From positions 2,080,001 through 2,144,000 of the forward strand of contig OY762911.1 of NCBI GenBank assembly GCA_963666565.1: 64,000 nt of DNA, read 5' to 3'. Every line of letters begins with the position of its first letter. The stretch's first letter is position 1. Positions 27,685 through 43,612 of the stretch are shown here, piece after piece. The DNA comes from Thermoanaerobaculia bacterium. Lineage in GTDB: Bacteria > Acidobacteriota > Thermoanaerobaculia > Multivoradales > Multivoraceae. Both the position numbers and the translations under genes were made by a program. The notes under the pieces were generated by a model, which worked only from the letters and a program-made list of their open reading frames with translations, was not told where the DNA came from and searched no databases.

Positions 27685-28527
27685 TCAGGTCGCGAGAATA
27701 GAGAACGGCCGATTGGCGTTCTCCCAAGACTGGACGCCGGCCCACATGCCCGTCTCCTCCAGGCTCTCTCGCTTGGCCGCCAACCGGAGGTCCTTGGCTA
27801 TGTCAGCGACGCCGACGCTGTTTGGCAGATCGCCAAGGACGCGCTTGAGACCCGTTCGCAGAATCTCGATCATGTCGTGCCCTCGTGCCACGTACCATGA
27901 TTCCTCCGTCCCGAGAGCAGTAATCCACTCTCGCCATTCCGTCAGTTCCGAATCGGAGCGCGTGGCGACCATCTCCATCAGGGTGTCGGTGTCGACCGTC
28001 CAACTCCGTTCGTCGAGAAACCTGGCAACCCTAATCTCGGCCATCGCATCGGTGGCGCCGTGGAGAGTGGCCGCGAGCCTGATCCGGCCGAAGACCAGCG
28101 CCCGTTCAAGGAGAGCTTGCCGGACGCCCATCTGGGATCTATCCCGAAAGCGTGCGATCTTCCTTGGGTCGCCGCGCTCATGCAAGACGGCATCGAGGGC
28201 GTCTGAACGACAGAGTAGGCACTCCAAGTCATGCGCATCCGTCGCGACGAGGTTGGCCGAGGGAAGGTCGGCCCCCACAAACATGTCGTAGTCGCTGTCG
28301 ACCAGGCCGAGGACGCCCGAAACTGACCGCGAGTCCAGTCGCTGCACCACTCCAAGCACGTTGAGCTTCCCCTCACCGTCAACCAGCTCGCACCGGGTGT
28401 GACGCCACTTCCTCCAGAAGCGCACGTCGTCCGCGCCTTCGACGACAAGAAACGCACCAGAGTGCGTGTCGCGGTGCAACCTGATCTCCGCAGCCAGGAT
28501 TGCCGGCGTCTTCTCCCCGAAAGGCAC
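27685..28527 (-). CDS. DUF4435/TOPRIM-like protein (AriB-like)
   Basis: VVEGADD, GK..V, GLVDSDYD, HDLE, RGHD motifs; directly downstream of an ABC-type ATPase. Confidence 0.82.
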   Translation of the reverse strand: MPFGEKTPAILAAEIRLHRDTHSGAFLVVEGADDVRFWRKWRHTRCELVDGEGKLNVLGVVQRLDSRSVSGVLGLVDSDYDMFVGADLPSANLVATDAHDLECLLCRSDALDAVLHERGDPRKIARFRDRSQMGVRQALLERALVFGRIRLAATLHGATDAMAEIRVARFLDERSWTVDTDTLMEMVATRSDSELTEWREWITALGTEESWYVARGHDMIEILRTGLKRVLGDLPNSVGVADIAKDLRLAAKRESLEETGMWAGVQSWENANRPFSILAT

Positions 28528-28604
28528 GTTGCTCCCCGTCCCTCAGTAGGGTCGCCGGCCAACCTCGACTTGGCGAAGCACTGCCTTCTCTTGCCACTCC
28601 CGTG

Positions 28605-29957
28605 TCAAGCCGGATCTCCGAGGCCGACCATCAGATCCTCGCGATCACCGATGATGTAAGGGGAATGAGTGGCCACGATCGTGTCGAAAGCAGATAGATC
28701 CGCGAATTCGAGCAGGTCTGGAAGAAATCGCTTTTGCCACGATACGTGAAGCGACAGCTCCGGCTCGTCGATCAGTACGATCGTGTTTTCCCTGACTCTG
28801 AACAGCAGATCGTAATGCAGAACCAGTTCATGCTGTTCACCGGATGAGAGAGAGCTCAGCGGCAGACGGGCACCGGAGTCGGTCTCGGCGACGAGTCCTT
28901 CTTTCCGGTCAATGCGCAGCCTCTTGTGTCTGTACTTTCCGTTGATACTCTCCAGAAGACTGCGAACTCTTCGCGCAACGTCCGCGAGTGCCTTGAGCTT
29001 GCGTTCTGTGTCCTGAACGTACAGCGTCATTACGCGGAGTTGCGTCGCGTCTAGCGTTGGCTGTACGGCCAGTCCGTGACTAGGCTGTTCAGAGGCCTCG
29101 TCCAGAATGCCGAGGGCCTTCAGTTGATCGGTCTCCTTCTTCAAGGCGGCCATACGCTCTTGAAGCTCGTCATCTCCGAAGCTGTCTTTCGCGTCGACTA
29201 GTCGCTGCGGAAAGGTCTGATCGAGAAGTTGGGCCTGTCGGCCGTAGTTGGCCATGGTTTCGCTAAGCAGTTCACTGAACTCGCGGCTTCGTGCCAGTAC
29301 CGTCGGTGTCGTGGAACGGTGAAACCGAGGGTTCCGCCATGCTGGCCGATAGGGTCGGGACCGCACTAAACGCTGAGCCTCGATGAAGTAGACGCGAGCG
29401 TGTTCCAGGAACTCTGGGAACCACTGCGGGAGGTCGCCGGTGTGTCCGCGCCGCGGTAGGCCGCGCAGGGGGCGGCCGCTGCCAGGAGAGGGGGGATCAC
29501 CGAACCGCGACAGGATCTCGCGTTCCGAGAGTACTTCGTTGTCGCGTACGTCGATCCAGGTGCTTGGCGTCCCCTCAAGGCGCTCTAGGAACTTGTATCG
29601 CTTGGCGATCTTCTCCGCTTCTGTATCCAGGCGGATGACTTCGGTGATGGGTTCACCGTTCGTCGTCAGTACGAGTTTTCCTTGGCGTCTCTCCCGATCT
29701 GTTGGATCGACGAGGAGCTCAATACTGCTGTCGGCGAAGGTGAGCTTGAAGCGTCTGCAGGGTACCCGCAGGAAGTAGCTGGTGTCGCTACCAAGCAGGG
29801 AGTTGATCATTCCCAGCGTGTGGGTCTTGCCAACGCCGTTCGGGCCGTGCAGCAGGGTGATGCGGTCCTTCAGGTTGAGGTCGATTCGGTGGTCGTAGAT
29901 GCCAAAGAGGCCTTCGACCTCGACCCGTTGTAACTGGATCAGTTTTGGCTCGTCCAT
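28605..29957 (-). CDS. ABC-type AAA ATPase (AriA-like)
   Basis: GLFG, GPNGVGKT, LSSGEQH, LIDEPELSLHVSWQ, ATHSP; ATG at 29957. Confidence 0.88.
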   Translation of the reverse strand: MDEPKLIQLQRVEVEGLFGIYDHRIDLNLKDRITLLHGPNGVGKTHTLGMINSLLGSDTSYFLRVPCRRFKLTFADSSIELLVDPTDRERRQGKLVLTTNGEPITEVIRLDTEAEKIAKRYKFLERLEGTPSTWIDVRDNEVLSEREILSRFGDPPSPGSGRPLRGLPRRGHTGDLPQWFPEFLEHARVYFIEAQRLVRSRPYRPAWRNPRFHRSTTPTVLARSREFSELLSETMANYGRQAQLLDQTFPQRLVDAKDSFGDDELQERMAALKKETDQLKALGILDEASEQPSHGLAVQPTLDATQLRVMTLYVQDTERKLKALADVARRVRSLLESINGKYRHKRLRIDRKEGLVAETDSGARLPLSSLSSGEQHELVLHYDLLFRVRENTIVLIDEPELSLHVSWQKRFLPDLLEFADLSAFDTIVATHSPYIIGDREDLMVGLGDPA

Positions 29958-30159
29958 GGCGTTCCCTGGTTCTGGGGCGTTCCGGCCTCGCCCGGCCCGC
30001 AACGAGGACGGCCGGGCGACTGTTACCGGCAAGACTCTACTCTAGGTCGTTCAGGCTGTGAAGAGGCGCAGTTCAAGGGTCGGAGGGTCGTGGTTGGGCG
30101 GTTTGGCGCCTCAGGCGCGTGGCGGACGAGCAGTTGGTGCGAGGGCGCGGACGGCTCGG

Positions 30160-33100
30160 CTACAACACATCGAGAAACTCGGCCAGAACGTCGGCTGCCC
30201 CTAAGCCTCGCTCGTTCTCCGCGGCCAGTTCGATCGGTCTGAACTCGGGGTTCAGGGGCTCCAGCACGATCCGGACGTGCCGCCAGGGCCCGTCCGTCGC
30301 GGCCCGCTTCTCGCTGCGGTAGCGCTTCACGGTGAAGCGTTCGCCGGTTTCCGGGTCCACCGCGTCCCGCAGGCGGGCCAGGACGATGCGGCCGTTTCGG
30401 GTCCCGCCTACGCCGCTGCGGAACAGGCAGATCGCCCCGTCGGGGATTCGTGGCGCCATCGACCGGCCGACGACCGTGGCGGCGAACATGCCGGGCGCCA
30501 GCGGACGCCCGGAGTCGACTTCGATCCAGCGGGTCTCGGGGTCGGCGGGTTCGCCGAGGGGTCCGTGCGTTTCGCTGAAGTCGCCCGCGGCGGCCTGCAG
30601 ATCCTCCACGAACGGCACGCAGGTCCGGTAGCGAGTCTCCGGCGTCGGCTGGACGAACCGGAGTACGTCTCCCGGCGGCTCGCGGAGGCTCTCGGCTGAA
30701 CTCGGCGTGACGGCGTTCGCGTCGTCCGGGCCGTCCGCAGCGTCCGGGTCTTCGGCACCGTCCCCAGCCGCCGGTGCGCTGGCCGCCGCGAACCAGCGGT
30801 CGTCGTTGACGCGTGTCCGTGCCTCACCAGCGTCCAGGTATCTCGCCAGCTTGCGGAAGTGCTGCGTCATCGCTCCGGCGTCGTCCAGGTCCGTGACCGT
30901 GATCTCCACGACCTCGTAGCCGCGTTGCCGCAGCCAGTAGCGGATCTCGCGGTCCTGCTCGGCGGTTCGGGGGTTGCCGTGCAGGTGCTCGCTCAGGCCG
31001 TCGAGGTAGATGCAGACGTCCGGCGCGTCACTGTCGCCGCCGCCGGCACCGCCGGCACCGCCATCGCCGCGGTAGACGACGTCGGGCGTCGTCGTCTTGA
31101 GGCCGGGTCCGAGGCTTATCTGTTCGCCGCGAACGCCCTCGCCGAAGCCGGCCGCCAGCAGGAGCTGCCGGAGCCTTCGTTCGGCCTCGTTGACCGGCTG
31201 CCCGCTCGCCTCCCGGCCGGCGGGGACGGCGGCGGGAATCGCGTGCGAGAACGACAGGCTCCGGCCCCACGCGCGCAGGCACGCCAGCGCCACGTGACGG
31301 TCGAGGTTCCCGTGGAAGTAGCCGTTGCGGAAGGTCTGCAGACAGTCGATGCAGGAGTGCCCGCAGGCGGAAGCGCAGCCGCCGACGACGGCTTCCGCGG
31401 CCCGCACGACCTCGCCCCAGCGCTCCGCGAGCTGGTCGAGCAGCCCCGAACCGCCCGGCATCGGGTCCCACAGCAGCGCGTCGACCTGCGGGCGGTCGAC
31501 GTGGCCCGCCACCAGAACCTGCAGGTCCTCCAGGTGCATCTCAAGCACCTGCGCGGCGCCGAACCGCAGCGCTTCCAGCACGCTGTACGCGGTCGTCGGA
31601 TCGGGCAGGTCCGGCAGCGAGAAGACGTCGGCCACGATGTCCGCGTGGAAGCCGATGCGGTTCACCGGGCGGCCGCAGCGTTCGCCGTGCTTCTCGGCGA
31701 AGTCCCGCTGCTGCCGCTCGGAGGACAGCGGCGAGACGCTCTGGCCGCAGACGGTGCAGACCGGGTACCCGAGGCCGCCGCCGTCGCCGATCGCGGACGA
31801 CGAGCCGACATTCACCAGCCGCAGTTCGACGCCGTGGCGCAGCAGCGCGTCCGCCCCGCCAGCGTCGGCGGGGCGAGCGCCCGCGCCTGCTCGAACGGCA
31901 CCCCCGCCGGCACCGAGTGGCCCTCGTCCTCCAGGATGTCCCGCCGGGTCTGCCGGATGCCGGCTTCGTCGTCTGCCGCCAGCCTGCCCGCCCGGCCCGC
32001 CCCAGCGGAACGCCCGGCCGCCGCAGTGACCTCCGCGTTCGATGCCATGCACGGCGACCGGCATCTGGAACCGGTAGTCCTCGTCGTCCGAGATCTGGGA
32101 CTGGTGCATGAGATCCACGTCGCACACGGCGAGCGTGCGGAGCGCTCCGGCGCCGAGCAGGGACGCGGGCGCCCCGGGATCGCACTGCCGCACGGCCTGG
32201 TTCTCGACGGAGACCTCGAAGGCCGGCATCTCCTCCCGGTCCTCGCCGGCCGACCGCAGGAAGCGGCGGGCGACGAAGCGGTGCCCGTTGGCATAGATCA
32301 GGTTGCCGGGTACGTACTCCCGCAGCGCCATGCCGGTCGGGCGGGGCAGGTTGAAGGCGAGCGCTCCCGAGTGCCAGAAGGGGACCTCGGCCATCGCCTG
32401 GACGGACCCCGTTTCGAGCCCGTAGCCGGGGAGGAAGCCGTGGGCCGCCAGCACGTTGAAGGTGTTCGCGTCGTCCTGGCCCTGGGCGTCGCGGCGGCTC
32501 GGGCGCGCCTGCCCCTTGAGCCGTTTGACCAGCCGGTCGCAGCGGCGGAACAGGGCGTCGTCTTCCGGGTCGAGCGCGCCGTGCCGGCGGCGGGTCTCGT
32601 GCAGCCTCTCCATCTGCGCTCGCGCCCAGTCCAGCCGGCGGCGCAGGGACCGGGCCGCGTCCTCCAGGCCGAAGACGAACTCGTCGATGCAGCGGCCGAG
32701 CGCGTCGGTGGCGACGGCCGCGGCGTCCGCCTCCGGCCAGCCTTGGCCGAAGGCGGCCTCGGCTTCGGCTAGCAGTGCCCCGCGATGCCGGCGGACGACG
32801 TCAGCGAGCGGCCCGAAGTCGAACGGGGCGGCGCGCACGGAACCTCCATCGAACAGCCAGGACGAGACGCGGCGCGGCAGGCAGCCTTCGAGCGCGGCCC
32901 GGATCCGCTCCCGCTCGGCGGGGTCGTCGCCGTCGTCGGCCTCTTGGCGGGTAAGCCGCTGGAGCCCGGTGAGCACGCATGCGTTGACGTGTTTGCGGAC
33001 CATCACGTCGTTGCTCAGGTTGAAGGCGGGCGGGTCGACCCGGCCGGCGAGCAGCTTCTCGGGCTCCGCGAAGTAGGCGCGGTCGTGCGACACGGGCCGG

Positions 33101-36100
33101 CAGTAGGTGAGATCGACCGCCATCCGGTGCCGCCGGCCGGCGCGGCCCGCGCGCTGCCAGTAGTTGGCCGGCAGCGGCGGCACGTTGCGCATGAGCACGG
33201 CGTCCAGCGAGCCGATGTCGACGCCGAGTTCGAGGGTCGCGGTGCAGACGAAGCAGTTCACCGCGTCGCTCCCGCCCTTGAACAGGTTCTCCAGGCGTTC
33301 CCGTTGCTGGTGGGGGACCATCGCCGTGTGCTCTTCGGGGCGCAGCATGGAGTAGCCGCCGTCCAGGAGCTGCAGGTCGTAGTCGTCCGGGTCTTCGCGC
33401 AGCCACTCGAGCGTGCCGTTGCACCGCCAGGCGGGGCAGCGCTCGTGCGGCGTCCGGCGGACGGTGCGGGCGCGGCAGCTCCGGCAGCGGTAGACGCCGT
33501 GGTGTGGCGACAGTTCGAGGCGGTCGCCGTCGACCTGGCAGACGCCGCTCGCGTTCGGCAGCGGCCGCCCGTGGGCGCCGACGAGCCGGACCGGCCGGAG
33601 CAGTCCGCGCTCCGTGAGCATCCCGAACAGGCTCCGCAGCAGGTCCTCCGTCTGCTCCGGCTCGGCGCCCCACTTGGCCGCCATCTGCTTCATCGTCGTC
33701 TGGCCGCCGTCGCTCAGCCACTGGAGGACCCGGTCCGGCGAGTCGCCAGGGCCGCGCTGCAGCTTGACGCCCCTCGGCCCGCCGAATCGCCGGAGGTACC
33801 CGTGCTGCCTCTCCAGGTCGCCGGCGAGGCGGAACTTGGTGAACGTCAGGTACTCCCCGTCGTGGAGGATCTTCCGTCGGCGCACGTAGTCGAGCGCGGC
33901 GGCGACGCCCTCCCGCATGGACTCCGGCGGCAGCCCGAGCCGGTTCGCCCAGTCCCGGATCCACGGAAGCGAGGCGTCCAGCCCGGCGTAGTCGACCTTC
34001 ATCCGGCCCCACGGCTCGAGACCCAGAGGCTGCCGGGCGGACTCCGCGACCTCCTGCAGCACCTGCATCCGCAGGAACTTCAGGCGCTCGTCGCGGTGGC
34101 GGCGACCGGCCGCCTCCGGGCGGGCCACCACCCACACCTCGGGGATCAGCGCGCGCGAGAGCGCCTCGTTCTTCTCCAGGGCGTCGTCCAGGTACCAGGT
34201 CAGGTCGCCGACCGAGCGGCAGCCGCCGGGGCCGAGCCCGTCCGCCATCAGCGACCGCAGCCGGAACCGGCGCGCGTGGTCCTTCATCCAGCCGGCCTGG
34301 AAGGCGGCGTCCTGGCGGTTGTCGCAGAACACGAGCAGGCGCGGGCGGGCCGAGTGGTGGACCATGTCCTGGGCTAGGACGTGGACGTCGGCGGCGTTGC
34401 TGGCGCGAACCGATCGCGCTGGCTCGCGGTAGCGGCCGCCGCCGGCGCGGTGGCCCGGTGTGCTGCATGAGAGGCAACTCGTCAGGACGCCGGGGCGTTC
34501 GCGGTTCTGCCGCACCGCGTGGAGCCGGACGCGGGGGTCGGGAGCGCCGCAGCCGAGGCAGGCGCCGCCGGCTCGTTCGTGCGCGGCGCCGCAGTGCCGG
34601 CAGAGGTGGACGGGCGCGGTGCGGCGCTCGAGGACGCTTGGGGCTTCGCCGGTCCCGGCGCCGCGGCCGGGTGCCGGGCCGCCGCCGTTGGTGCTCCCGT
34701 CGCGGCGGCCGGATCCCGTGCCGTGCCCCTTCTCGTCTTCGCCGTCCTCCTCGTCGCCGCCGATGAGCCGGTCGACCAGAACCGCCCTCCTGCCCCCGAG
34801 CGCCTCGTCCAGCGGGGGCCAGAAGACGCCGCGGTCGCTCGGTTCGCCGCCGCCGGGGCGGCGTCCGTCGAAGGAGAAGTCCTGGAGATGGGCCTCGAAG
34901 TAGTGCTGCCCGCAGGTCGTGCAGGTCAGAACCGGCAGACGGGCCGTTTGCAGCGCTTCGTCTTCGGGAACCTGGGCTGCGCTCTCGCGCGCCGCACGCG
35001 AACCGCTCCGAACGCCCATCGGCCGCCCGGACGCCATGCGCTCATCCTGCCCGCTTCCGGTCTTCCCGGTCGCTTCGGCACTGGCGGTGCCGGCGGCCTC
35101 GCCATGCTCGATCTCGTCTTCCGCCGCCAGCCACAGCCGCGGTTCGCCGGTCTCGTCCGGGAACGAAACGACCGCGCCGGGGATTCCGCGCACGAAGCCG
35201 TGGACCACGGGCCGCAGCAGGGGCCGCCCCTTGCTGCGGGCCGCCGCGGCCAGGGTCAACCAGGCCAGGATCTCGGCCTCCGCGATCTCCCGGCCGATGG
35301 CTTCCCGGAGTTCCGCCGGCAGTTCGTGCAGCGGCCGCGGCCGGTGAAGCGCCTCGTTCAGCCGGTAGACGATCTCGCTCCGTGCCAGGGCTTCGTACAG
35401 CGCCTCGGGCCACGCGCCGGCGGCGAGCTCGTCGCCTGCGAGCGCCCGGTACGCGGCCCGAACCGCGTCGCCGGGTCCATCCGGGTCGTCCTCGACCGCC
35501 TCGACGCAGGCGGCGAGAAGGCCGGCCGCGTCTTCCGGCCCAGTGGCTGCCTCTTCAGGCCCGGCGCCGCGGCCGCCGCTCGCGGACGGAGCGCCAGCCG
35601 CCGCGGCGGCGCCCATCTCTTGGGCTGCCGCGTCATGCCGCCGCCGCGCCTCGCTCCAGACCTCCGGCTCGTAGTCCTCGCCGACCGTCTCCACCGACTC
35701 CTCCGGCACGCCGAAGAACCGCGATGCGAACGCGCGGGCCGCGCCGGGCCGCTCGGGGTCGACGATCGTCGCCGAGGTGGCGACGCAGACCGTGTCCGCG
35801 GCCCGGCGGCCGCAGAACGCGCGCAGCCGGCGAACGAGGCACGCCGTCTCGGCGCCCATCGCGCCGGTGAACGTGTGCGCCTCGTCGAACACGAGAAAGT
35901 CGAGCCGGGCGCCGTGGAACAGCTCGGCGTCCCGCTGCCGGGTGAGCAGCAGTTCCAGTTGCTTCACGTTCGTCAGCAGGATGCGCGGCTGCCCGCCGGG
36001 GGAGCGCATCGCTTCGCGCGAGCATGCTTCCTCCGGCGGAAACACGGACTCGCCGCTCTTCGCGGCCTGCACCTCGGCGAGCCTCGCCTCGTAGTCGGCC

Positions 36101-36690
36101 CGCGACGCGCCCCGCGGCAGGCGGATGCCGGCGACGCCGCTCTCGTTCTCCGGCGTCTTGCCGACGTACATCCCGAACGAGACGCCCGTGCCCGCCAGCA
36201 GCGAGCGCAGCCGCATCAACTGGTCCTCGGCCAGCGCGTTCATCGGGTAGACGATCACCGCGCTGATGCCGGACGGCGCGCCCTCGTCCCGCAGCTTCAG
36301 GCAGCGGCTGACGACGGGGTAGAGGAAGCACTCCGTCTTGCCCGAGCCGGTACCGGTCGAGACCAGCGTCGAGCACCCCGCGGCGATGGCGCGGATGGCC
36401 TGCTCCTGGTGCCGGTAGAGCGCCTCGATGTCCTCTGGAATCCGCTGCTCCAGGTGCGGATGCAGCAGCCCCTCGGCCGCCAGGTCCGCCACCGGCGAGC
36501 CCGTCCGAAACGGCCGCGAGAGACTGACGAACGGCCCCCGCAGCAACGGCGACCGCCGCGCCTCGTCGAGCGAGAGGAGTTCCCGCATCTGCCCGTTCAA
36601 CCGCGGATCCGCGAACGGATAGGCCCGCAACTGGTAACGGAGGAAGCTCTGGAGGACCTTCTCCGTGAAGACGACGGGGTTCAGCGCCAT
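30160..36690 (-). CDS. giant DEAD/DEAH helicase with DUF1998, Vsr/DUF559-like nuclease and C-terminal S24 peptidase domains
   Basis: TGTGSGKT, YPMNALAEDQ, DEAH, TSAT, ATLELGVDIG, QRAGRAGR; DPMPGGSG...C-x3-C-x3-CxxC; PD..IYLDG..H; AAG/GRSM/TVKR; start MALNPVVF. Confidence 0.9.
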   Translation of the reverse strand: MALNPVVFTEKVLQSFLRYQLRAYPFADPRLNGQMRELLSLDEARRSPLLRGPFVSLSRPFRTGSPVADLAAEGLLHPHLEQRIPEDIEALYRHQEQAIRAIAAGCSTLVSTGTGSGKTECFLYPVVSRCLKLRDEGAPSGISAVIVYPMNALAEDQLMRLRSLLAGTGVSFGMYVGKTPENESGVAGIRLPRGASRADYEARLAEVQAAKSGESVFPPEEACSREAMRSPGGQPRILLTNVKQLELLLTRQRDAELFHGARLDFLVFDEAHTFTGAMGAETACLVRRLRAFCGRRAADTVCVATSATIVDPERPGAARAFASRFFGVPEESVETVGEDYEPEVWSEARRRHDAAAQEMGAAAAAGAPSASGGRGAGPEEAATGPEDAAGLLAACVEAVEDDPDGPGDAVRAAYRALAGDELAAGAWPEALYEALARSEIVYRLNEALHRPRPLHELPAELREAIGREIAEAEILAWLTLAAAARSKGRPLLRPVVHGFVRGIPGAVVSFPDETGEPRLWLAAEDEIEHGEAAGTASAEATGKTGSGQDERMASGRPMGVRSGSRAARESAAQVPEDEALQTARLPVLTCTTCGQHYFEAHLQDFSFDGRRPGGGEPSDRGVFWPPLDEALGGRRAVLVDRLIGGDEEDGEDEKGHGTGSGRRDGSTNGGGPAPGRGAGTGEAPSVLERRTAPVHLCRHCGAAHERAGGACLGCGAPDPRVRLHAVRQNRERPGVLTSCLSCSTPGHRAGGGRYREPARSVRASNAADVHVLAQDMVHHSARPRLLVFCDNRQDAAFQAGWMKDHARRFRLRSLMADGLGPGGCRSVGDLTWYLDDALEKNEALSRALIPEVWVVARPEAAGRRHRDERLKFLRMQVLQEVAESARQPLGLEPWGRMKVDYAGLDASLPWIRDWANRLGLPPESMREGVAAALDYVRRRKILHDGEYLTFTKFRLAGDLERQHGYLRRFGGPRGVKLQRGPGDSPDRVLQWLSDGGQTTMKQMAAKWGAEPEQTEDLLRSLFGMLTERGLLRPVRLVGAHGRPLPNASGVCQVDGDRLELSPHHGVYRCRSCRARTVRRTPHERCPAWRCNGTLEWLREDPDDYDLQLLDGGYSMLRPEEHTAMVPHQQRERLENLFKGGSDAVNCFVCTATLELGVDIGSLDAVLMRNVPPLPANYWQRAGRAGRRHRMAVDLTYCRPVSHDRAYFAEPEKLLAGRVDPPAFNLSNDVMVRKHVNACVLTGLQRLTRQEADDGDDPAERERIRAALEGCLPRRVSSWLFDGGSVRAAPFDFGPLADVVRRHRGALLAEAEAAFGQGWPEADAAAVATDALGRCIDEFVFGLEDAARSLRRRLDWARAQMERLHETRRRHGALDPEDDALFRRCDRLVKRLKGQARPSRRDAQGQDDANTFNVLAAHGFLPGYGLETGSVQAMAEVPFWHSGALAFNLPRPTGMALREYVPGNLIYANGHRFVARRFLRSAGEDREEMPAFEVSVENQAVRQCDPGAPASLLGAGALRTLAVCDVDLMHQSQISDDEDYRFQMPVAVHGIERGGHCGGRAFRWGGPGGQAGGRRRSRHPADPAGHPGGRGPLGAGGGAVRAGAGARPADAGGADALLRHGVELRLVNVGSSSAIGDGGGLGYPVCTVCGQSVSPLSSERQQRDFAEKHGERCGRPVNRIGFHADIVADVFSLPDLPDPTTAYSVLEALRFGAAQVLEMHLEDLQVLVAGHVDRPQVDALLWDPMPGGSGLLDQLAERWGEVVRAAEAVVGGCASACGHSCIDCLQTFRNGYFHGNLDRHVALACLRAWGRSLSFSHAIPAAVPAGREASGQPVNEAERRLRQLLLAAGFGEGVRGEQISLGPGLKTTTPDVVYRGDGGAGGAGGGDSDAPDVCIYLDGLSEHLHGNPRTAEQDREIRYWLRQRGYEVVEITVTDLDDAGAMTQHFRKLARYLDAGEARTRVNDDRWFAAASAPAAGDGAEDPDAADGPDDANAVTPSSAESLREPPGDVLRFVQPTPETRYRTCVPFVEDLQAAAGDFSETHGPLGEPADPETRWIEVDSGRPLAPGMFAATVVGRSMAPRIPDGAICLFRSGVGGTRNGRIVLARLRDAVDPETGERFTVKRYRSEKRAATDGPWRHVRIVLEPLNPEFRPIELAAENERGLGAADVLAEFLDVL

Positions 36691-36825
36691 GAAGTCGGCA
36701 AGGCTACCGCCTTGGGTCTCGTCGTTTCGCCGACGTCGAGCGTCCCGGGTCGGATTGACTGGTGCCTGCCGTGGTACGTCCCTGGCGGCCATATGCTCGG
36801 AGACCGGCCACGCCAGAGGAGTGCC

Positions 36826-37068
36826 ATGAACAAGGAACCGGACTACAGAGGGGTCGCCAAGGTGTTCTGGAGCGGAGGCAGCCAGGCGGTGAGGCTTCCG
36901 GCGGCGTGCCGGTTCGAGACCTCCGAGGTGGACGTCATCAAGGAGGGAGACCGGCTCACGCTGCTTCCGCGCGGGAAGAACTGGGGCGCGTACTTCGATT
37001 CCAAGTCCCGCGGGAGCCTTCCGGCGCGCAGCCAGTCGCCACTTGAGGAGCGGGACCGTCTCCGCTGA
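36826..37068 (+). CDS. AbrB/VapB (VagC-like) antitoxin, no toxin downstream
   Basis: AKVFWSGGSQAVRLPAACRF...V.V.KEGDRLTLLP; AGGAG upstream. Confidence 0.88.
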   Translation: MNKEPDYRGVAKVFWSGGSQAVRLPAACRFETSEVDVIKEGDRLTLLPRGKNWGAYFDSKSRGSLPARSQSPLEERDRLR

Positions 37069-37080
37069 TTCCGTTCTCGG

Positions 37081-37578
37081 TCAGGTACGTGACGGCGTCA
37101 GCCGTCGTGAGCAACGGCGGCGGTGGAGGAAGTCGTTTCGACGCGCCGGCGCCTCCTTGGCCGGGAACGCGCTACGCCGGTGGCCGGGGATCTCCGGCAG
37201 GAACCGGAGGTCCTCGAAGTCGGTCTTGAGATTCTCGTCGTGAGCGACGATCACGAGTGCGTCCGACGCTGCCGCCAGCGCGAGCATGGGCTTGTCCTTC
37301 TCTCCGGAACGCGTCTCCACGTCGCGCAGGCGATCCTCTTCGCGCCGGACGAGTTGGTCTTCGATCAGAAGCGCAAGGCCGTTCTGGCTGTAGCGCCGAA
37401 AGAGAGCGGAGACGTCGGAGTCCCGCTCGAGCTCCCGACCGGCGCGACCGTAGGTCGAGAATGCGACGCGCCCGTGGCCATCGCCGATCCAGCGTCGAAG
37501 CTGTTGGCCCGCCGATTCGGGAGACGCCTGCTTGAACACATCGAACGCACTCGCGTCGAACACCACCCGAGTACACAT
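37081..37578 (-). CDS. PIN-like domain protein
   Basis: N-terminal VVFDAS, then E, KDKPMLALA..SDA.VIVAHDENL - an acidic pattern typical of PIN folds. Confidence 0.65.
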   Translation of the reverse strand: MCTRVVFDASAFDVFKQASPESAGQQLRRWIGDGHGRVAFSTYGRAGRELERDSDVSALFRRYSQNGLALLIEDQLVRREEDRLRDVETRSGEKDKPMLALAAASDALVIVAHDENLKTDFEDLRFLPEIPGHRRSAFPAKEAPARRNDFLHRRRCSRRLTPSRT

Positions 37579-37587
37579 GGACGGCGC

Positions 37588-38886
37588 CTACCGGCGAAAA
37601 CCGAGGAGCCGCTCGGTTTCGTCGAGGAAGAAGTGCCGGAATCCTGGCGGCGCGTCGCCCAGGTTCGCCTGCCTGTCGACCCGGATGCCGTGCAACTCGG
37701 TGGACATCCGGTCGTCGGCTCTCTCGAAGTAGACGATTCCGAGATCGTCCGGGTCAACTTCCCCCGACATGACGGCGATGCGAAACCAGTCGGGGACGTG
37801 ATCGCTGTGCGACTCGACCAGAACCCGGCCTCCGCGTGAGGCGATCGACCGAACCAATGCCGCTTGAGCTCGCGGATGCAGGTGGGCTTCCGGCTGCTGC
37901 AGGAGGATTGTTGCCTCCTCCGGCGCCGAGGCGATCGCTTGGAGCAACGGCAGCGCACTCTGGATGCCGAAGCCGACATGGACCAGGTTGTAGGGTTCAC
38001 CCGAAGCGTTGGCCCAGACTTCGTAGTGACCCAACGCTCCCCGCCGCACCTCCAGGTCGCTGAAGATCCCCAACTTCCTGCCCAGTTCGCGGATCTCCTC
38101 CAGCGTGTGTGCGTCTACGTTCCGACCGAACGGGTTCGACCCATAGGCGGGCCTGCGTTCCCATCCGTCCGGGTCGTTGTTCGCGATGACCAACGCGCGT
38201 TCGGGGGTACGCAAAGGAACGTTCCGGCGAAAGAAGTTGACGAATCCGGCAAACATTCTGTCCGATTCCGGCGTCGGGTCGCCCGTCTGCTTTCGCCGGA
38301 GCGTGAGATTTCCGTCATATGGCAGATGGCCTCGCATCACGGACCGTGACAGCCAGGTGCTGGGCTGCGCATAGGAAACGGACGACTGCGCGAAGTCGAA
38401 CTCGAAGCCCGGTCCGACGACGCGCCAGGTTTCGTCGTCTTCGGAGGAGGATCGGTCGACGCGAATGACCTTGAAAGCTGGCCCGTCTTCGCCGTCCGTC
38501 GCGAAACGGAGCTCCAGCTCGCGCTCTCGTGGTTCGCCGTTGGCGCCCCTGTCGTACGTGACGCGGATCCGGTCGTAGTGGTGGTCCCGCAACGTGGCTT
38601 CGAGAGAAAACGTCGCCGACCCGGAGCGGGCCATGGCCGCGAAGGAGTCCATCCAGAACGGAGGCCGGGCGAAGTGGTTCTCGTCGTCCAAGTCGTCCCA
38701 GGTGGAGCGTTCCCGATCCCACTTCTGCAGGTTCGCCACATGCGCAAGCCCCTGCAGGCATCCGAGAAAGGTCGACTTGCCCGCGCTGTTTTCGCCCACG
38801 AGCACCGTGATGCGGGGCAGTTCAGCCTGATGGGTGCCCGCGAAGCAGCGGACGTCGGTCAGAGAGAGCTGGGTCAGTGCGCTCAT
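37588..38886 (-). CDS. ABC-type ATPase with DUF3696-like C-terminus
   Basis: VRCF, GENSAGKST, VGFGIQSALP, LLQQPEAHLHP, VESHSDH, C-terminal PPGF..FF; ATG 38886 overlaps the upstream stop. Confidence 0.85.
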   Translation of the reverse strand: MSALTQLSLTDVRCFAGTHQAELPRITVLVGENSAGKSTFLGCLQGLAHVANLQKWDRERSTWDDLDDENHFARPPFWMDSFAAMARSGSATFSLEATLRDHHYDRIRVTYDRGANGEPRERELELRFATDGEDGPAFKVIRVDRSSSEDDETWRVVGPGFEFDFAQSSVSYAQPSTWLSRSVMRGHLPYDGNLTLRRKQTGDPTPESDRMFAGFVNFFRRNVPLRTPERALVIANNDPDGWERRPAYGSNPFGRNVDAHTLEEIRELGRKLGIFSDLEVRRGALGHYEVWANASGEPYNLVHVGFGIQSALPLLQAIASAPEEATILLQQPEAHLHPRAQAALVRSIASRGGRVLVESHSDHVPDWFRIAVMSGEVDPDDLGIVYFERADDRMSTELHGIRVDRQANLGDAPPGFRHFFLDETERLLGFRR

Positions 38887-40361
38887 GGTCCGGAAGGTCC
38901 CGTGAGTCTTCGCAGGAACCGTTGCAGCCGTATCACGAGCCCGGGAGCGCCGGAGGCCGGCGCTTCCGCCCCAGGCTGGGCCTGTTCGTCCAGGAACGGG
39001 TACACCGCCCGGTCCCCCAGTGCCGTTCGGGCCTCTACTTCGCACCGTTCGCGGCACCGCTCGTCCGCGACGCCGAGCGTCCCCGGCACGTAGCTGTAGT
39101 GGAGCTTGCCCGCGTCCTGCGGCCACCAGTCGTCGCCGACCACCATGCGCAGCATCTCCAGGGTCATCAGGCTGGCGAGGTTGGCGCTGAACGGGAACAC
39201 GTTCTGGTTCGTCGGCTTGCCGCCAGCCATCCTGGCGAGGTAGGCGGGGTCGTCCAGGGAGCCGTCCCGCTCGAGCACGACGTCCGACGTCGTGTACTGT
39301 CCGTCGCAGCGCAGGCAACGGCGTTCCGGCCCCGAGCGGACCACGCTCCAGGTCGCCTGGCCGAGCGTGCCGTCCTTCTTCGTGTCGACGAAGACCCCTC
39401 CGAAGACGACGGGAATACAGTGGGCGTAGGCGATGTGGTTCATCAGGTCCTTCGGCAGGGGGCGGTCGACGCAGGAGAACAGGATGTCGCAGTCGAGCGC
39501 GGCGGAGAAACAGTCGCGCTGCTGCAGCCAGCCGGCGTGGGCGTCCACCCGGAACCCGGCGGCCGTCGCCGAGCGGCGCAACCCGTCGGCGGCGAGTTCC
39601 ACCTTGAGCCGACCCACGTCGTTCTCGCCAGCGTACAGGAGGCGGTCGAGGTTGTGCGCCTCCACTCGGTCGGCATCCACGAGGACGACGCGCTCGACGC
39701 CGATGCGCGCCAGCGTCTCCGCCACCAGGCAGCCCACGCTGCCCAGTCCCACGACGCCGACTCGCAGGCGCGCCAGGTCGGCCTGGCGGGCGGCGCCCCA
39801 GGTGTCGATGGTCCGCCTCAGGGCGCGGCGCCGCTCCGGCGGGGGCGCCAGTTCGTCGTTGCAGGTGAGCCTCATGCGACGACCGACAACGCGCACCTTT
39901 CGGCACCACGTTCGCTCGAATCCGCTGGCGGTCCGATCCCAGAAACGCGCGCTCCAGGCCTCGTCCGTGCCGAGGGTGAGCCCCACGAGGGGCAGGTGGG
40001 TCGCTCGCGCCGGCGCGGCGATGCGGTCGCGTTCGGCGCTCACGTCCTCCCGGCTCATTCCCTGCCAGCCGGGGCTGGGGTGGCTGTGGAGGAAGGCCAG
40101 CCCCGCCTCTTTCTCGCAGGCCAGGCGCACGGCGCGCGACAGGTAGTCGGCTTCGAAGCTCGCGCCGCCGTGGAGCGCTCGTTCTCCTTTCCGCGGGAGG
40201 ATCAACTCCGAGACCAGCGCCGTCGTCCGGCTCGCGCCCCGGCTGGGATTCCAGAGCGCGAAGCAGAGGTCCTCCTGCCTCCTCCCCGCGCGCAAGTGGG
40301 CCAGCAGGTGCTTGCAGGCGGCTTCGTGAACCGGTTCGGCGAGCGCGGCTTCGAAGTTCAC
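38883..40361 (-). CDS. JAB peptidase - E1/ThiF adenylyltransferase fusion
   Basis: JAB E...HSHP...S..D; ThiF GLGSVG, DADRVEAHNLDR, SCVD, Zn-binding CLRC and CRERC; GTG start overlaps the E2 stop. Confidence 0.88.
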   Translation of the reverse strand: MNFEAALAEPVHEAACKHLLAHLRAGRRQEDLCFALWNPSRGASRTTALVSELILPRKGERALHGGASFEADYLSRAVRLACEKEAGLAFLHSHPSPGWQGMSREDVSAERDRIAAPARATHLPLVGLTLGTDEAWSARFWDRTASGFERTWCRKVRVVGRRMRLTCNDELAPPPERRRALRRTIDTWGAARQADLARLRVGVVGLGSVGCLVAETLARIGVERVVLVDADRVEAHNLDRLLYAGENDVGRLKVELAADGLRRSATAAGFRVDAHAGWLQQRDCFSAALDCDILFSCVDRPLPKDLMNHIAYAHCIPVVFGGVFVDTKKDGTLGQATWSVVRSGPERRCLRCDGQYTTSDVVLERDGSLDDPAYLARMAGGKPTNQNVFPFSANLASLMTLEMLRMVVGDDWWPQDAGKLHYSYVPGTLGVADERCRERCEVEARTALGDRAVYPFLDEQAQPGAEAPASGAPGLVIRLQRFLRRLTGPSGP

Positions 40362-40732
40362 AGTTGCTCCAGAACGCGCAGGAGGTGGCGCCTGACGTAG
40401 GTTCGCATGTTCTTCTGGGACGGCTCCAGCGTGTCCCAGAAGTCGCTTGGAGGGAAGCTGAACGCCCACCACCGGGCGCCTTCGAACTCGTGCTCCGAGT
40501 GCTTCGTAAAATGCGTGCCTTCCAGGTTGCGAAAGTGAATGAAGTGCGGCGGATACTCCGGGTAGGCATCTTCCTGGAAGCTCAGCCCGATAAGAAGCGT
40601 CCGTCCCTTGAAACGACCGTTCTCGACGTGGAAGGGAAAGATGACTCCCGCTTCCCCGGCGCCGTTCCAGGACTCGACGACGCGGGCTTCGAATCCGAGT
40701 TCCCTCAGTTCGCGGGCGACCTCTTCAAGCAC
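40358..40732 (-). CDS. prokaryotic E2/UBC-like protein (no cysteine)
   Basis: 124 aa with YPEYPPHFIH and WWAFSF, located between the Ubl and E1 genes. Confidence 0.72.
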   Translation of the reverse strand: MLEEVARELRELGFEARVVESWNGAGEAGVIFPFHVENGRFKGRTLLIGLSFQEDAYPEYPPHFIHFRNLEGTHFTKHSEHEFEGARWWAFSFPPSDFWDTLEPSQKNMRTYVRRHLLRVLEQL

Positions 40733-40736
40733 GGGC

Positions 40737-41195
40737 TCAGGCGACAGGCGTTCGTCCGGCGTGAAGCGCCACGAACTGGTCGCCGTCCGCGATCGGCACT
40801 TCGTCGCCGAGGTTCTCGTACCGGGCTCCGGTGCGGACGTTGTCCAGGTAGTAGCTCTCCAGCTCGCTCGTGTCGATCGCGGCCTCCGAACCGGCCCGCC
40901 GCAGGATCTCCTCCAGCGTCAACGGCGTCTTCGCCGTCACCTGGCGCTCGCCGTTCACGGTGTACCGGATCCGCGTCCCCACGGGATCCGGCGGCGCCTG
41001 CCCTGGCCTGGCCCCGAACGCGTCGCCGTCCCGCAGGTCGACCTCGGCGGCCGGGTCGGTCCACTTCTCTCCGGTTTCCACGCGCACGAGCACGGCGCCC
41101 GTCGAGTCGATGCCCGCCTGCTCCAGGAGCCACGCGACCGTGACCGGACTCCGCGGAGACGTGAACCTGCGGTCGTTGATCGTGAAGCGGTACAT
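40737..41195 (-). CDS. multi-ubiquitin domain protein (two beta-grasp repeats)
   Basis: Repeats FTINDR...TVAWLL..AG...VDLRDGDAF and YTVNGE...TLEEIL..AG...VPIADGDQF; ends G-RTPVA; GAGG upstream of ATG 41195. Confidence 0.8.
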   Translation of the reverse strand: MYRFTINDRRFTSPRSPVTVAWLLEQAGIDSTGAVLVRVETGEKWTDPAAEVDLRDGDAFGARPGQAPPDPVGTRIRYTVNGERQVTAKTPLTLEEILRRAGSEAAIDTSELESYYLDNVRTGARYENLGDEVPIADGDQFVALHAGRTPVA

Positions 41196-41394
41196 GCTGG
41201 CTGTCGCCTCGATTCTGGCGGCCTGTACTTCGTCGGCCGTGAGTGGCCCGTTGGGCTGACGCGACTCTTCTTCGACTGGCCGTCGTTCTGCGGCGAGACT
41301 ATACCGGCCGTGAGGCCGGGGGCCGGACATCTCAGGCCTTCCGCCGCGGGCGGGAGCCGACTGGCGCCGTGGGCTTGCGCTGTAGATTCCGGCC

Positions 41395-41919
41395 ATGCCG
41401 TCCGAGCGCAAGATCCTCGTCATCGCCGGGCCGAACGGGGCCGGGAAGACCACCTTCGCCAGGGAGTACCTGCCGTTCGAGCCGGCGTGTCCGATCTTCG
41501 TCAACGCCGACCTGATCGCGGCGGGCGTCTCGCCGTTGAACCCGGAAGCGGCGGCGTTCCGGGCTGGCCGCCTGATGCTGGAGGAGATCGACCGCCACGC
41601 GAGGCAAGGCAGGAGCTTCGCCTTCGAGACGACCCTGGCCGGGCTCGGCTACGTGCGGAGGATCCGGCGCTGGCGGAGATCGGGCTACGTCGTCAAGCTG
41701 ATCTACCTGCCCCTCGCGACGCCCGAGGAAGCGCTCAGCCGCGTGGAGCAGCGAGTGAAGCAGGGCGGCCATCGGATTCCTGAAGATCTCGTCCGGCGGC
41801 GCTTCGACAGGAGCGTGGCGAACTTCCGGAAGGTCTACCGCGATCTCGTAGACTTCTGGGTAGTCGTTGACCGGCGAGGTCGCAGATTGGTCGTTGTCGG
41901 GGAGGGAGCAAACCAGTGA
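41395..41919 (+). CDS. zeta-toxin-like P-loop protein
   Basis: IAGPNGAGKTT, VNADLIA, FAFETTL, RV..RV.QGGH.IPE. Confidence 0.88.
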   Translation: MPSERKILVIAGPNGAGKTTFAREYLPFEPACPIFVNADLIAAGVSPLNPEAAAFRAGRLMLEEIDRHARQGRSFAFETTLAGLGYVRRIRRWRRSGYVVKLIYLPLATPEEALSRVEQRVKQGGHRIPEDLVRRRFDRSVANFRKVYRDLVDFWVVVDRRGRRLVVVGEGANQ

Positions 41920-42119
41920 GCGCGGAGAAAGAACAGCGTCCCGTGCTGAAGCTCGACGATCCCGACATCCAGGCGGTGCCTGCGGCGCTGGAACGCGCGG
42001 TCCGCCGCGCACACAGGGATGCGCACCGGCACGGCACCGGCGTTCTCGTGGTCGAGGACGGCAAGATGGTGGAGGTTCCCCCCGATCCGGCGCTGTACGA
42101 AGACGACAGGGCTCCGTAG
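41916..42119 (+). CDS. small partner protein of the zeta-like ATPase
   Basis: GTGA overlap; ALERAVRRA...VLVVEDGKMVEVPP. Confidence 0.75.
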   Translation: MSAEKEQRPVLKLDDPDIQAVPAALERAVRRAHRDAHRHGTGVLVVEDGKMVEVPPDPALYEDDRAP

Positions 42120-42430: not shown

Positions 42431-43612
42431 ATGGCGCAGTTCACGGTCGCGGAATGGAAGTGCATCGAGGACGAACTGACGGCGAACCCCGGGAGGTACG
42501 GGTTTCCAGACAGGGTCTACGGCTCCGTCCTTCTGGGGTCGTTCAACGTCAGGAAGCTCGGGGCGGCGAAAGGCCGGAACAAGCGGACCTGGGAGTTCCT
42601 GGCCCGCATCTGCAAGCAGTTCGACCTCATCGCGATCCAGGAGGTGATGGACGATCTCGGCGGGATGCGCCGGTTGATGGAACTCTTGGGCCCGGACTTC
42701 GAGATGATCGTGTCGGACAAGACGGGCACCTTTCCCGGAGAGCCGGGTCTCGGAGAGCGGCTGGCCTTCGTCTACAACCGGCGTGTCGTCGTTCGCACCG
42801 AGGTTGCGACGGACATCACCTTCGACCGTTCAAAGATCCTCTCGACCCTGATCGCCAACCGCGACGACGTGCACGAGGCGCTCGACCCCATGGTCGCGTA
42901 CGAGAAGAAGCTCGCGTCTTGGCAGCGACACCGGCGGGGAAGACGGCCGCGGCGGCCGAAACTCAAGCTGCCGACCTTTCTGGCGTTCATCCGCGCTCCG
43001 TTCTGCGTGAGCTTCGAGGTTCCCGGACATCCGGGAACCGAGCCGTACCGGTTCATGGGCGTGAACGCTCACCTGTACTTCGGCAACTACATCGACGACC
43101 GGCGCCAGGAGTTCGACGCGCTGATGGACTGGATCGTGAGCCGCGTCGACGAGAACGACGCGACGTACTACCCGAACTTCTTCCTGTTCGGCGACCTGAA
43201 CCTGGACTACGACAACCCGGCCAAGGACCGCGACCGAGTGGAGCGACACCTGAAGCGCTTCGACGGGGAGAGCGCCGAAGGAGTGCGGGTCAACTTCCCG
43301 TTCCTCGACCCGCATCCCGGCCGCGAAACCGTGTTCCGAACGAACGCGCGCATGACCGAGACGTTCGATCAGATCGGCCTGTTCTTCCGGGACCAGAGGT
43401 TCCCGCCGTGCGACGTGAACGAAGACATGGGCAGCCGCCCGGAGGGACCGGACTACGGCGTCTTCGACTTCGTCGACCTCTTCGCGCAGGCCGTCTTGAA
43501 GAAGCCGTTCGCCGATCTGCAGAAGCAGGAGAAGACGGACCTCGTGAAGAGGTTCGAGCACAAGGTGAGCGATCACCTGCCGATTTGGATCCGGCTGCCA
43601 CTCCCGCGCTAG
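42431..43612 (+). CDS. endonuclease/exonuclease/phosphatase (DNase I-like) protein
   Basis: SFNV, DLIAIQEV, NAHL, GDLN, FDQI, SDHLPI; AGGAGG RBS. Confidence 0.9.
   Translation: MAQFTVAEWKCIEDELTANPGRYGFPDRVYGSVLLGSFNVRKLGAAKGRNKRTWEFLARICKQFDLIAIQEVMDDLGGMRRLMELLGPDFEMIVSDKTGTFPGEPGLGERLAFVYNRRVVVRTEVATDITFDRSKILSTLIANRDDVHEALDPMVAYEKKLASWQRHRRGRRPRRPKLKLPTFLAFIRAPFCVSFEVPGHPGTEPYRFMGVNAHLYFGNYIDDRRQEFDALMDWIVSRVDENDATYYPNFFLFGDLNLDYDNPAKDRDRVERHLKRFDGESAEGVRVNFPFLDPHPGRETVFRTNARMTETFDQIGLFFRDQRFPPCDVNEDMGSRPEGPDYGVFDFVDLFAQAVLKKPFADLQKQEKTDLVKRFEHKVSDHLPIWIRLPLPR

Follow-up and report, generated by a model that had tools for sequence, protein, structure and literature searches.

How might a ubiquitin-like protein be passed to its target by enzymes that carry no catalytic cysteine? 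The question is raised by a short run of genes in a Thermoanaerobaculia bacterium (Acidobacteriota; assembly GCA_963666565.1, contig OY762911.1, positions 2,080,001 to 2,144,000), within a stretch of 64,000 nucleotides (nt) that we refer to as the window and whose first letter is position 1. Positions 38883..41195 hold three tightly packed minus-strand genes, for a ubiquitin-like protein (Ubl), an E2-like protein and a fusion of a JAB peptidase to an E1 enzyme, and two further genes of the same operon lie 3′ of the JAB-E1 gene, the first encoding an ATPase and the second a protein of 165 amino acids (aa), here p165. We consider it moderately probable (about 0.6) that the five genes form a defence-island operon whose first three members are a diverged relative of the bacterial Bub pathway, working without catalytic cysteines. 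Homology, fold, residue conservation and gene linkage carry this reading; the chemical steps, the target and a role in defence are proposed from them, with Bub-like, cysteine-free (oxyester) chemistry as the best reading by analogy. The operon and its parts, all on the minus strand, are as follows.

40737..41195, minus strand: Ubl, 152 aa, two predicted beta-grasp (Multiubiquitin-type) repeats, from Pfam, Atlas and hhalign.
40740..40757, minus strand: Ubl C-terminal motif G147-R-T-P-V-A152, followed directly by the stop codon, from conservation.
40358..40732, minus strand: cysteine-free E2 (UBC fold), 124 aa, from the AlphaFold2 model and VIA-align.
40457..40459, minus strand: codon of Ser92, the proposed E2 nucleophile, from conservation and position in the fold.
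40544..40546, minus strand: codon of His63 (motif YPEYPPHF), which may assist Ser92 in catalysis, from conservation.
38883..40361, minus strand: JAB-E1 fusion, 492 aa, from Pfam, PDB and hhalign.
39867..40361, minus strand: JAB/JAMM peptidase domain, about residues 1-165, collinear with the JAB domain of BubCD.
38883..39854, minus strand: E1 adenylation domain, about residues 170-492, Pfam ThiF at E 6.1e-33.
39180..39317, minus strand: E1 crossover-loop region, C349 to N394, with the Tyr374 codon at 39240-39242, from alignments.
37588..38886, minus strand: ABC-type ATPase, NsnB-like, 432 aa, from Pfam and PADLOC.
37081..37578, minus strand: p165, 165 aa, probably PIN-like, from Atlas and the acidic-residue pattern.

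The genes are nearly continuous. The GTG start of the E2 gene lies 4 nt past the Ubl stop, in another frame; the GTG start of the E1 gene overlaps the E2 stop, the ATG of the ATPase gene overlaps the E1 stop (ATGA), and the p165 gene begins 9 nt beyond the ATPase gene. At the other end, the ATG of the Ubl gene at 41195 agrees with the N termini of its relatives. A frameshifted Ubl-E2 fusion was considered and rejected: a stop codon, the 4-nt gap and a GTG in another frame separate the two, and most relatives are split too. Using the E2 as bait, we gathered 68 cassette loci from many phyla, in which gene order is constant and the E1 is present in 68, the E2 in 66, the ATPase in 65 (each time adjoining the E1), the Ubl in 64 and p165 in 61 (each time 3′ of the ATPase). 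No conserved sixth gene or regulator was found at these loci, any one flanking protein cluster being common to at most 8 of the 68. A scan of 36700-41600 for sigma-70-type promoters and terminators gave nothing beyond shuffled expectation, and no tRNA genes were found in the window.

The reference for these genes is the Bub pathway, defined by Ye, Gong, Chambers & Corbett in 2024 (PMC11601596); what we take from this and the other cited papers refers to excerpts of them. Type I Bub, as described there, has three proteins: the Ubl-E2 fusion BubAB, the JAB-E1 fusion BubCD and the Ser-His protease BubE (DUF6527). Gly229 is the residue after which the JAB domain cleaves BubAB, and oxyester chemistry via an E1 tyrosine and an E2 serine has been demonstrated: conjugation requires Tyr370 of the E1 crossover loop and Ser333 of the E2, flanked by His335 and Asp299, and the change Y370F abolishes it (PMC11601596). 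The same excerpts give bubE as present in all Bub operons, and the catalogue of PMC11601603 was built from operons containing DUF6527. Our comparisons use the Type I system of Citrobacter sp. RHBSTW-00271 (PDB 9ea4, 9eae and 9eav) and nine operons with BubB, BubCD and BubE, which came from BubCD-like genes in 10 of 401 genomes of one class. L072, a DUF6527 locus of genome G002, qualifies as true Type I Bub: its BubCD matches 9ea4 at E 1e-68 and its BubB matches 9eae_C at E 6.5e-18. Its BubA and BubB are encoded by separate overlapping genes (5166-8085 of that locus; Ubl end QQGHE), unlike the fusion described as typical, and the same genome also carries a variant cassette (L046).

The JAB-E1 fusion gives the clearest link to Bub. 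Its best sequence match in the PDB is Citrobacter BubCD (9ea4), at E 8.2e-17 with the single sequence and E 3.8e-24 with a 31-sequence profile, and its JAB and E1 parts both align to 9ea4 in order. When the E1 family is aligned to the nine BubCDs with hhalign, the match reaches a probability of 99.95% and E 1.8e-38 over 436 collinear columns, with the JAB domain collinear from residue 4. These alignments settle the homology of the fusion to BubCD over its full length. The JAMM residues E30, H92, H94, S103 and D106 are each present in 63 of 63 family members, as are the adenylation residues G205, G207, G210, R240 (equivalent to Bub R227), K253 and D299 and the zinc-site cysteines of CLRC (C349/C352) and CRERC (C436/C440). 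Between these cysteine pairs, residues 353-435 of the window E1 contain no cysteine, and no family column there has one in more than 3 of 63 sequences. The initial annotation of this DNA had read an intact JAB motif and a crossover loop lacking cysteine after CLRC from the single sequence, and both observations extend to the family.

The loop also lacks the Bub tyrosine. Mapped through the alignment of the L072 BubCD (PDB index equals native number plus 2), Tyr370 falls within a GY[ILV] motif that is invariant in all nine BubCDs; this segment is missing from the window E1 family, whose loop is some six residues shorter. Within the family Tyr356, Ser359, Ser368 and Tyr374 are invariant or nearly so, Tyr374 in 63 of 63. 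We then extended the comparison to three sister loci (L086, L087 and L088, with JAB-E1 relatives at E about 1e-130) and to four relatives on actinobacterial plasmids (L089, L090, L094 and L095), whose E1 is about 40% identical to that of the window. Tyr356 becomes phenylalanine in one sister locus and leucine in the four plasmid relatives, and two sister loci and all four plasmid relatives lack Ser359 and Ser368, which leaves Tyr374, in the motif D-D-P-x-Y-[ILV], as the sole loop hydroxyl kept throughout. It lies 20 residues ahead of the conserved asparagine of the next helix, where the Bub tyrosine lies 15 ahead. In a quick maximum-likelihood tree of 31 E1 proteins the nine BubCDs split from the window family, its sisters and the actinobacterial plasmid proteins with a Shimodaira–Hasegawa-like approximate likelihood ratio (SH-aLRT) value of 99; the careful search behind this tree was unfinished, and the tree is midpoint-rooted, with two long branches unsure.

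The Ubl is likewise a Bub relative by its alignments. Its Pfam match to Multi_ubiq (PF14452) has E 0.0012 and 19.4 bits, below the cut-off of 24.5, and five of 36 Ubl relatives match the same family at E≤0.01; all 30 of its nearest Atlas clusters are Multi_ubiq (score 0.92), and hhalign of the family against nine BubA sequences gives a probability of 91.6% and E 8.2e-7 over 143 columns. What distinguishes it is its C terminus, HAG-RTPVA, which the initial annotation had read correctly. G147, T149, P150, V151 and A152 are each found in 36 of 36 aligned relatives. Among 64 loci with a Ubl, 40 end at TPVA and one at TTVA; 16 are extended by 2-13 unrelated residues past TPVA, mostly where the open reading frame (ORF) overlaps the E2 start, and seven continue into the E2 as a fusion, the residues after TPVA being variable. 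The sister loci end in G-R-TEVA followed by the stop, in G-P-TTVA followed by the E2, and in G-E-TGVS plus 10 residues, and the plasmid relatives in AGPVA, GGVA (twice) and RTCAPVA. In the Bub operons compared here, the Ubl is conserved up to NNG and variable beyond. Conservation of the cassette tail thus stops after alanine (or serine), where a reactive C terminus would be expected. Ala152 is probably the activated residue, at odds of about two to one, because conservation ends after it and not after the glycine; if so, the window Ubl is not masked. The bacterial E1/E2 enzyme Cap2 accepts some substrates with a C-terminal alanine and tolerates a change from glycine to alanine (PMC10097602).

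The tail and the loop together bear on the model that came with the initial annotation, in which Gly147 is masked, JAB removes RTPVA, and Ser92 takes over the Ubl straight from the Gly147 adenylate, the E1 forming no covalent intermediate. Gly147 is indeed invariant (36 of 36), the JAB of Type I Bub cuts BubAB right after a conserved glycine (PMC11601596), and the deletion of the catalytic tyrosine column in the cassette E1 would leave room for a direct hand-off. However, T149, P150, V151 and A152 are as invariant as the glycine, 40 of 64 frames stop after the alanine, and only later residues vary, whereas in Bub it is the residues past the cut glycine that are variable. The L090 Ubl has no glycine at all in its last 12 residues. 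The proposed trimming of RTPVA is therefore probably wrong. Nor does the direct passage from E1 to the E2 serine find support, given that Bub needs its loop tyrosine and the cassette clade keeps Tyr374 throughout; a tyrosine-mediated step appears more likely than direct transfer from the adenylate to the serine. We regard this model as unlikely, though less so than the other alternatives.

The reading of a diverged, cysteine-free Bub relative depends equally on the E2. This protein has no cysteine in its 124 residues and carries Ser92 within WWAFSF, as noted initially. Across the family Ser92 is found in 159 of 164 relatives, the remaining five being truncated fragments with gaps, His63 in 162 and Pro94 in 151; W88, P94, P95, W99 and D100 around the serine are also conserved, and the plasmid relatives have the His63 motif in the form PPHW. 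No family column has cysteine in more than 6 of the 164, and 102 of the domains are wholly free of it. A cysteine-free protein of 124 aa, or a cysteine-free stretch of 83 residues, is unremarkable alone, but family-wide invariance at the UBC catalytic position is beyond chance.

This position comes from an AlphaFold2 model built with 32 relatives (predicted local distance difference test score, pLDDT, 93.9; predicted template-modelling score, pTM, 0.87). The initial annotation had made its case hang on a UBC fold for the product of 40358-40732, and the model adopts one: the chain runs from a helix through a sheet and a beta-hairpin, which ends at residue 92, to a short helix (96-99) and a long one (109-123). 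Ser92 is at the end of strand 86-92, immediately ahead of the short helix. In UBC folds the catalytic cysteine lies just ahead of the short helix that precedes the crossover helix, and the model places Ser92 in that position. Compared with 48,161 solved chains by VIA-align, the model is closest to Citrobacter BubB (9eav_D; Z 9.5, root-mean-square deviation 3.2 Å over 112 of 124 residues), the sole chain at Z≥8; E2, UFC1, UEV and Atg3/10 chains follow at Z 7.5 and below.

By sequence, the E2 is far more isolated. It has no match in Pfam, NCBIfam or PADLOC (NCBIfam likewise has none for the Ubl or p165), and none of its 117 homologues carries a precomputed Pfam domain. Searching PDB sequences with profiles of the E2, Ubl and p165 families yielded nothing meaningful, and a Foldseek search of the PDB with the E2 model gave no row at E≤0.001, the best rows (E 0.16-0.5) being mostly E2 enzymes. 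Similarity to Pfam Prok-E2_E (PF14462) is graded, from the BubB of L072 (1.4e-26) through the sister E2s of L087 (8.2e-7) and L086 (0.0047) to the window E2, which gives no match even at E≤10. Aligned to nine BubB domains with hhalign in global mode, the E2 family reaches a probability of only 11% (E 7e-4), in a weak but collinear match of 111 columns. That match pairs Ser92 with the serine of BubB WSRH and sets Pro94 at the Bub His335 column and His63 at the Asp299 column (LDMFY); these pairings agree with the structural match to BubB. All our equivalences of catalytic residues come from sequence and profile alignments.

Such a protein could instead be a non-catalytic adaptor of the UEV/RWD type, with the E1 alone activating the Ubl for direct aminolysis, for a small-molecule adduct or for non-covalent signalling to the ATPase and PIN-like pair. 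UEV domains do occur among the fold matches (Tsg101 at Z 6.6, Vps23 at Z 5.8), and the catalytic partners of the Bub serine are not kept. Iyer, Burroughs & Aravind read such cysteine-less E2s as inactive, RWD-like domains in 2006 (PMC1779556). Against this stand the conservation of Ser92 and its surrounding motif at the catalytic position and the nearest solved relative, BubB, which is an active serine E2. An adaptor role accordingly seems improbable to us, more so than the masked-glycine model.

The operon continues with two genes that are foreign to Bub. The ATPase matches Pfam AAA_21 (E 1.5e-17) and AAA_15 (E 7.4e-12), with no match to DUF3696 at E≤0.01. Its best PADLOC model is NsnB of the Menshen system (E 1.2e-38), the best stretch covering only positions 207-335 of the 345 in the profile. 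Walker A is normal. At the Walker B position (residues 328-338) the sequence reads LLQQPE, with Q330, P332 and E333 invariant and Q331 in at least 90% of 30 relatives. D-E is the norm there for this class of ATPase, and the protein may be a switch more than a motor, able to bind ATP but poor at hydrolysing it. In p165, Met1-Cys2, D8, W30, D95 and D120 are invariant and E49 and D114 nearly so, an acidic spacing that fits the PIN D-E-D-D set, and its closest clusters in Atlas carry PIN names (score 0.96). Neither Pfam nor the PDB nor profile comparison gave a match to PIN: none of 39 homologues has a precomputed Pfam domain, and the p165 profile matches a plasmid protein that RefSeq names PIN at a probability of 1.6%. 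p165 is probably PIN-like, an assignment that we offer as a lead. A predicted complex of ATPase and p165 had a median score of 0.49 against 0.32 for one control; it is non-specific and speaks neither for nor against binding.

In Menshen, NsnA (DUF262) accompanies NsnB, an ABC ATPase whose Walker B is degenerate, and NsnC, which joins a PIN-like N-terminal domain to an effector; NsnB-NsnC complexes have been predicted (PMC12065111). The terms ‘ubiquitin’, ‘JAB’ and ‘ThiF’ do not occur in the text of that paper, and no account of a Bub-like module linked to an NsnB/PIN pair turned up in the literature that we searched, where only the 2024 preprints of the Corbett laboratory came up and which left aside the operon catalogue (Table S1) and the journal versions. 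By analogy, the cassette resembles the effector half of Menshen joined to a Bub-like module in place of NsnA.

Two side observations concern the cysteines of p165. Met1-Cys2 is invariant in 35 of 35 relatives at 25-87% identity, and Cys156 is near-invariant, in a basic FLxRRRC tail. As speculation, the free N-terminal cysteine left after removal of the methionine would be an apt acceptor for an acyl ester.

Three sites differ together between the two groups: the cassette clade has DDPxY in the E1, PPH...S in the E2 and ...VA at the Ubl end, where Bub has GY[ILV], DMFY...WSRH and ...G. A bolder reading would make of this set a third, so far unrecognised type of cysteine-free ubiquitin-like pathway, which activates a C-terminal alanine and whose output is the control of a Menshen-type ATPase-PIN nuclease, possibly by ligation of the Ubl to Cys2 of p165. 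Transfer from oxyester to thiol at Cys2 would there be followed by an S-to-N shift that yields a peptide bond. We rate this as a long shot, on a par with the adaptor; if true, it would be the first link of Bub-type conjugation to an identifiable effector.

The cassette also lacks BubE. A search for DUF6527/BubE (PF20137) gave no match in the genome of the window (one contig, 4.79 Mb, 97% complete), while a Caulobacter control scored. Among five genomes with cassette relatives, two (G002 and G003) have DUF6527, both times elsewhere and in separate Bub operons of their own. That the locus is a canonical Type I Bub operon, with bubE elsewhere or lost and an unrelated ATPase-nuclease pair beside it by chance, is very unlikely: it has on its side a Type I domain layout (multi-Ubl, serine E2, JAB-E1), seven relatives with a Ubl-E2 fusion and the DUF6527 genes elsewhere in those two genomes, but the near-complete genome of the window has no DUF6527, the copies in G002 and G003 belong to their own Bub operons, the E1 clade stands apart from the nine BubCDs in the quick tree, the E2 His/Asp and E1 Tyr columns are unmet, and 61-65 of 68 loci, drawn from many phyla, have the ATPase and PIN-like genes behind the E1, with overlapping codons. 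A role as sulfur carrier of the ThiS/MoaD kind was rejected, there being no sulfurtransferase partner and a JAB domain, an E2 and a defence context being present. The general idea of Bub-type chemistry proposed initially draws good support from the BubB fold and the BubCD homology and does not extend to a canonical Bub operon, with BubE missing and the catalytic columns different; both the BubE-less module and the operon link to the ATPase and PIN-like genes had escaped notice.

If the cassette is the diverged Bub relative that we favour, the E1 domain would first adenylate the C terminus of the Ubl, most likely Ala152 of TPVA, without trimming in this genome. The acyl group would pass to a tyrosine of the crossover loop, for which Tyr374 is the candidate because no other loop hydroxyl is kept throughout the wider clade. 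From there it would be transferred, helped by His63, to form an oxyester with Ser92 of the E2, and end on an amine of the target. The task of the JAB domain in relatives would be to cut Ubl precursors that are fused or extended at the C terminus; because BubE is absent, it would probably also remove conjugates. The ATPase and PIN-like pair, likened to NsnB-NsnC, would probably be controlled by conjugation or execute the defence.

Several observations pull against this scheme. The chemistry of the family is drawn from homology. The Bub tyrosine column is missing from the E1 and Tyr374 is displaced, which makes its proposed role a matter of analogy, not orthology. The similarity of E2 to BubB is non-significant by sequence taken alone (probability 11%, an empty PDB profile search and a best Foldseek E of 0.16). 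Gly147 is as invariant as the residues behind it, and the Ubl may yet be cut after the glycine. In the second module, the QQ at Walker B suggests that the ‘ATPase’ may not hydrolyse ATP, and the PIN assignment of p165 comes from a language-model match and a pattern of acidic residues. Lastly, the Ubl-E2-E1 core occurs on plasmids without the ATPase and PIN-like genes, and the two modules may be functionally separable.

The E2 family is rare, with 49 clusters at E≤0.001 among 1.84 billion representatives, and its closest relatives come from metagenome-assembled genomes labelled Candidatus Multivorans (Acidobacteriota) and from other uncultured lineages. The distribution is patchy: within the genus, a match was obtained in 10 of 36 other species, and seven of these matches are strong and lie at differing sites of the chromosome, whereas 24 genomes of other genera in the order gave none. 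The three sister loci have other E2 variants (WSRPHP, LSRPPGGFWD) and different downstream genes, encoding a DUF2971 protein, a 557-aa Schlafen/AlbA_2 protein or a membrane protein. L087 also has a second ThiF-type E1 (4295-5950) with small E2-like and Ubl-like ORFs of its own. The four plasmid loci, in Rhodococcus, Nocardioides, Pseudarthrobacter and Clavibacter, hold the core without ATPase or p165 (multiubiquitin, a hypothetical protein of 110-125 aa and a ‘ThiF family adenylyltransferase’); RefSeq uses the name ‘multiubiquitin’ for two of these plasmid relatives. This variety among sisters and plasmids fits a conjugation core with exchangeable partners.

Further observations on the plasmids stand apart from this. 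In L094 the E2 is unannotated, though an open frame encodes it, and an ImmA/IrrE metallopeptidase gene lies near the core in three of the four plasmids, recalling the CapP-type regulators reported beside Bub operons. An archaeal plasmid of Haloprofundus (L096) has a Bub-type set, with GAGYVQGL in the E1, RWSH in the E2 and a Ubl whose end reads GSGRS; the flanking genes encode a phospholipase D-like protein and a DEAD/DEAH helicase.

In the window, the cassette lies in a defence island, with defence genes on both sides.

27685-30032, minus strand: a 475-aa AAA_21/AAA_15 ATPase, then a 280-aa DUF4435 protein, from domain matches.
30160-36792, minus strand: DruE-like helicase, 2210 aa, with DEAD, Helicase_C, MZB and a C-terminal Peptidase_S24 (LexA-like) domain; PADLOC DruE3 at E 1.3e-107.
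41395-41919, plus strand: Zeta_toxin/AAA_33-like kinase, 174 aa, from domain matches.
42431-43612, plus strand: Exo_endo_phos (EEP) nuclease-family protein, 393 aa, from domain matches.

The AAA_21/DUF4435 pair looks like another defence-type module beside the DruE-like helicase. On the other side, the genes for the Zeta-toxin-like kinase and the EEP nuclease are divergent from the Ubl gene, and the stop of the former overlaps a 67-aa ORF (41395-42119 for the two, plus strand). At about 36830-37068 on the plus strand, converging on p165, the tail of a long spurious ORF resembles by eye a small antitoxin of the AbrB/SpoVT type (AKVFWSGGSQAVRLPAACRF).

Apart from the Bub pathways, no ubiquitin-type cascade is known to use oxyesters, and in the excerpts of PMC11601596 no Bub operon tested so far gave protection from phage. 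The cassette keeps the cysteine-free core while changing every accessory catalytic residue, and in place of BubE it has an ATPase and a likely nuclease, similar to an effector module whose part in defence is proven. It therefore offers a natural comparison set for the residues that enable oxyester transfer between serine and tyrosine, and, in nuclease activity or abortive infection, a candidate read-out of conjugation. The whole clade, actinobacterial plasmids included, is overlooked by catalogues that start from DUF6527, its members being annotated only as ‘ThiF family adenylyltransferase’ and hypothetical proteins.

Among known systems, Menshen shares with the cassette the ATPase, whose best defence-model match is NsnB, its degenerate Walker B and the small PIN-like protein next to it. 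It differs in having NsnA, whereas neither the cassette nor the window has NsnA/DUF262, the PF03235 matches of this genome lying at 1.05, 1.69 and 4.43 Mb (the window spans 2.080-2.144 Mb). In addition, p165 keeps the PIN-type acidic residues that the NsnC PIN-like domains are described as lacking (PMC12065111, excerpts), and it has no C-terminal effector domain. Type II CBASS (Cap2/Cap3) and Bil (BilABCD) are likewise bacterial E1/E2/JAB conjugation systems in defence, and the substrates of Cap2 may also end in alanine (PMC10097602). Both use thioesters through catalytic cysteines, which the cassette E2 and E1 loop do not have; CBASS conjugates a CD-NTase and not a Ubl, and the Bil E1 is a tandem-domain enzyme with a cysteine domain. 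Operon class 6e of the 2006 survey (PMC1779556) has the same tandem ubiquitin-like protein, cysteine-less E2-like protein and JAB/E1 protein, with a zinc-finger protein (later DUF6527) that the cassette lacks and an E2 that was read as inactive.

Type II Bub (BubA, the E2-E1 fusion BubBD, and BubE) shares a separate Ubl gene and the cysteine-free Ser/Tyr chemistry proposed for the cassette, but its E2-E1 fusion, the usual absence of JAB, the lysine and histidine beside the serine and BubE have no counterpart in the cassette. Type I Bub is closest, with a JAB-E1 fusion homologous over its full length, a UBC-fold E2 with an invariant serine and no cysteine, a crossover loop without cysteine, a multi-beta-grasp Ubl directly 5′ of the E2 (fused to it in some cassette relatives) and mobile or defence contexts. 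The cassette departs from it in lacking BubE, in having Pro94 and His63 at the His335 and Asp299 columns of an E2 that Prok-E2_E misses where it finds BubB, in a deleted Tyr370 column alongside another invariant tyrosine, in an E1 that keeps a four-cysteine zinc site, in a Ubl ending in G-x-TPVA, probably with a reactive alanine, instead of NNG followed by variable residues, and in the added NsnB-like ATPase and PIN-like gene. Cysteine-free chemistry as such has been in print since 2024; what is new here is a module that lacks BubE, whose E1 and E2 have catalytic constellations of their own, that probably uses a C-terminal alanine and that is constantly linked to an ATPase and a PIN-like protein.

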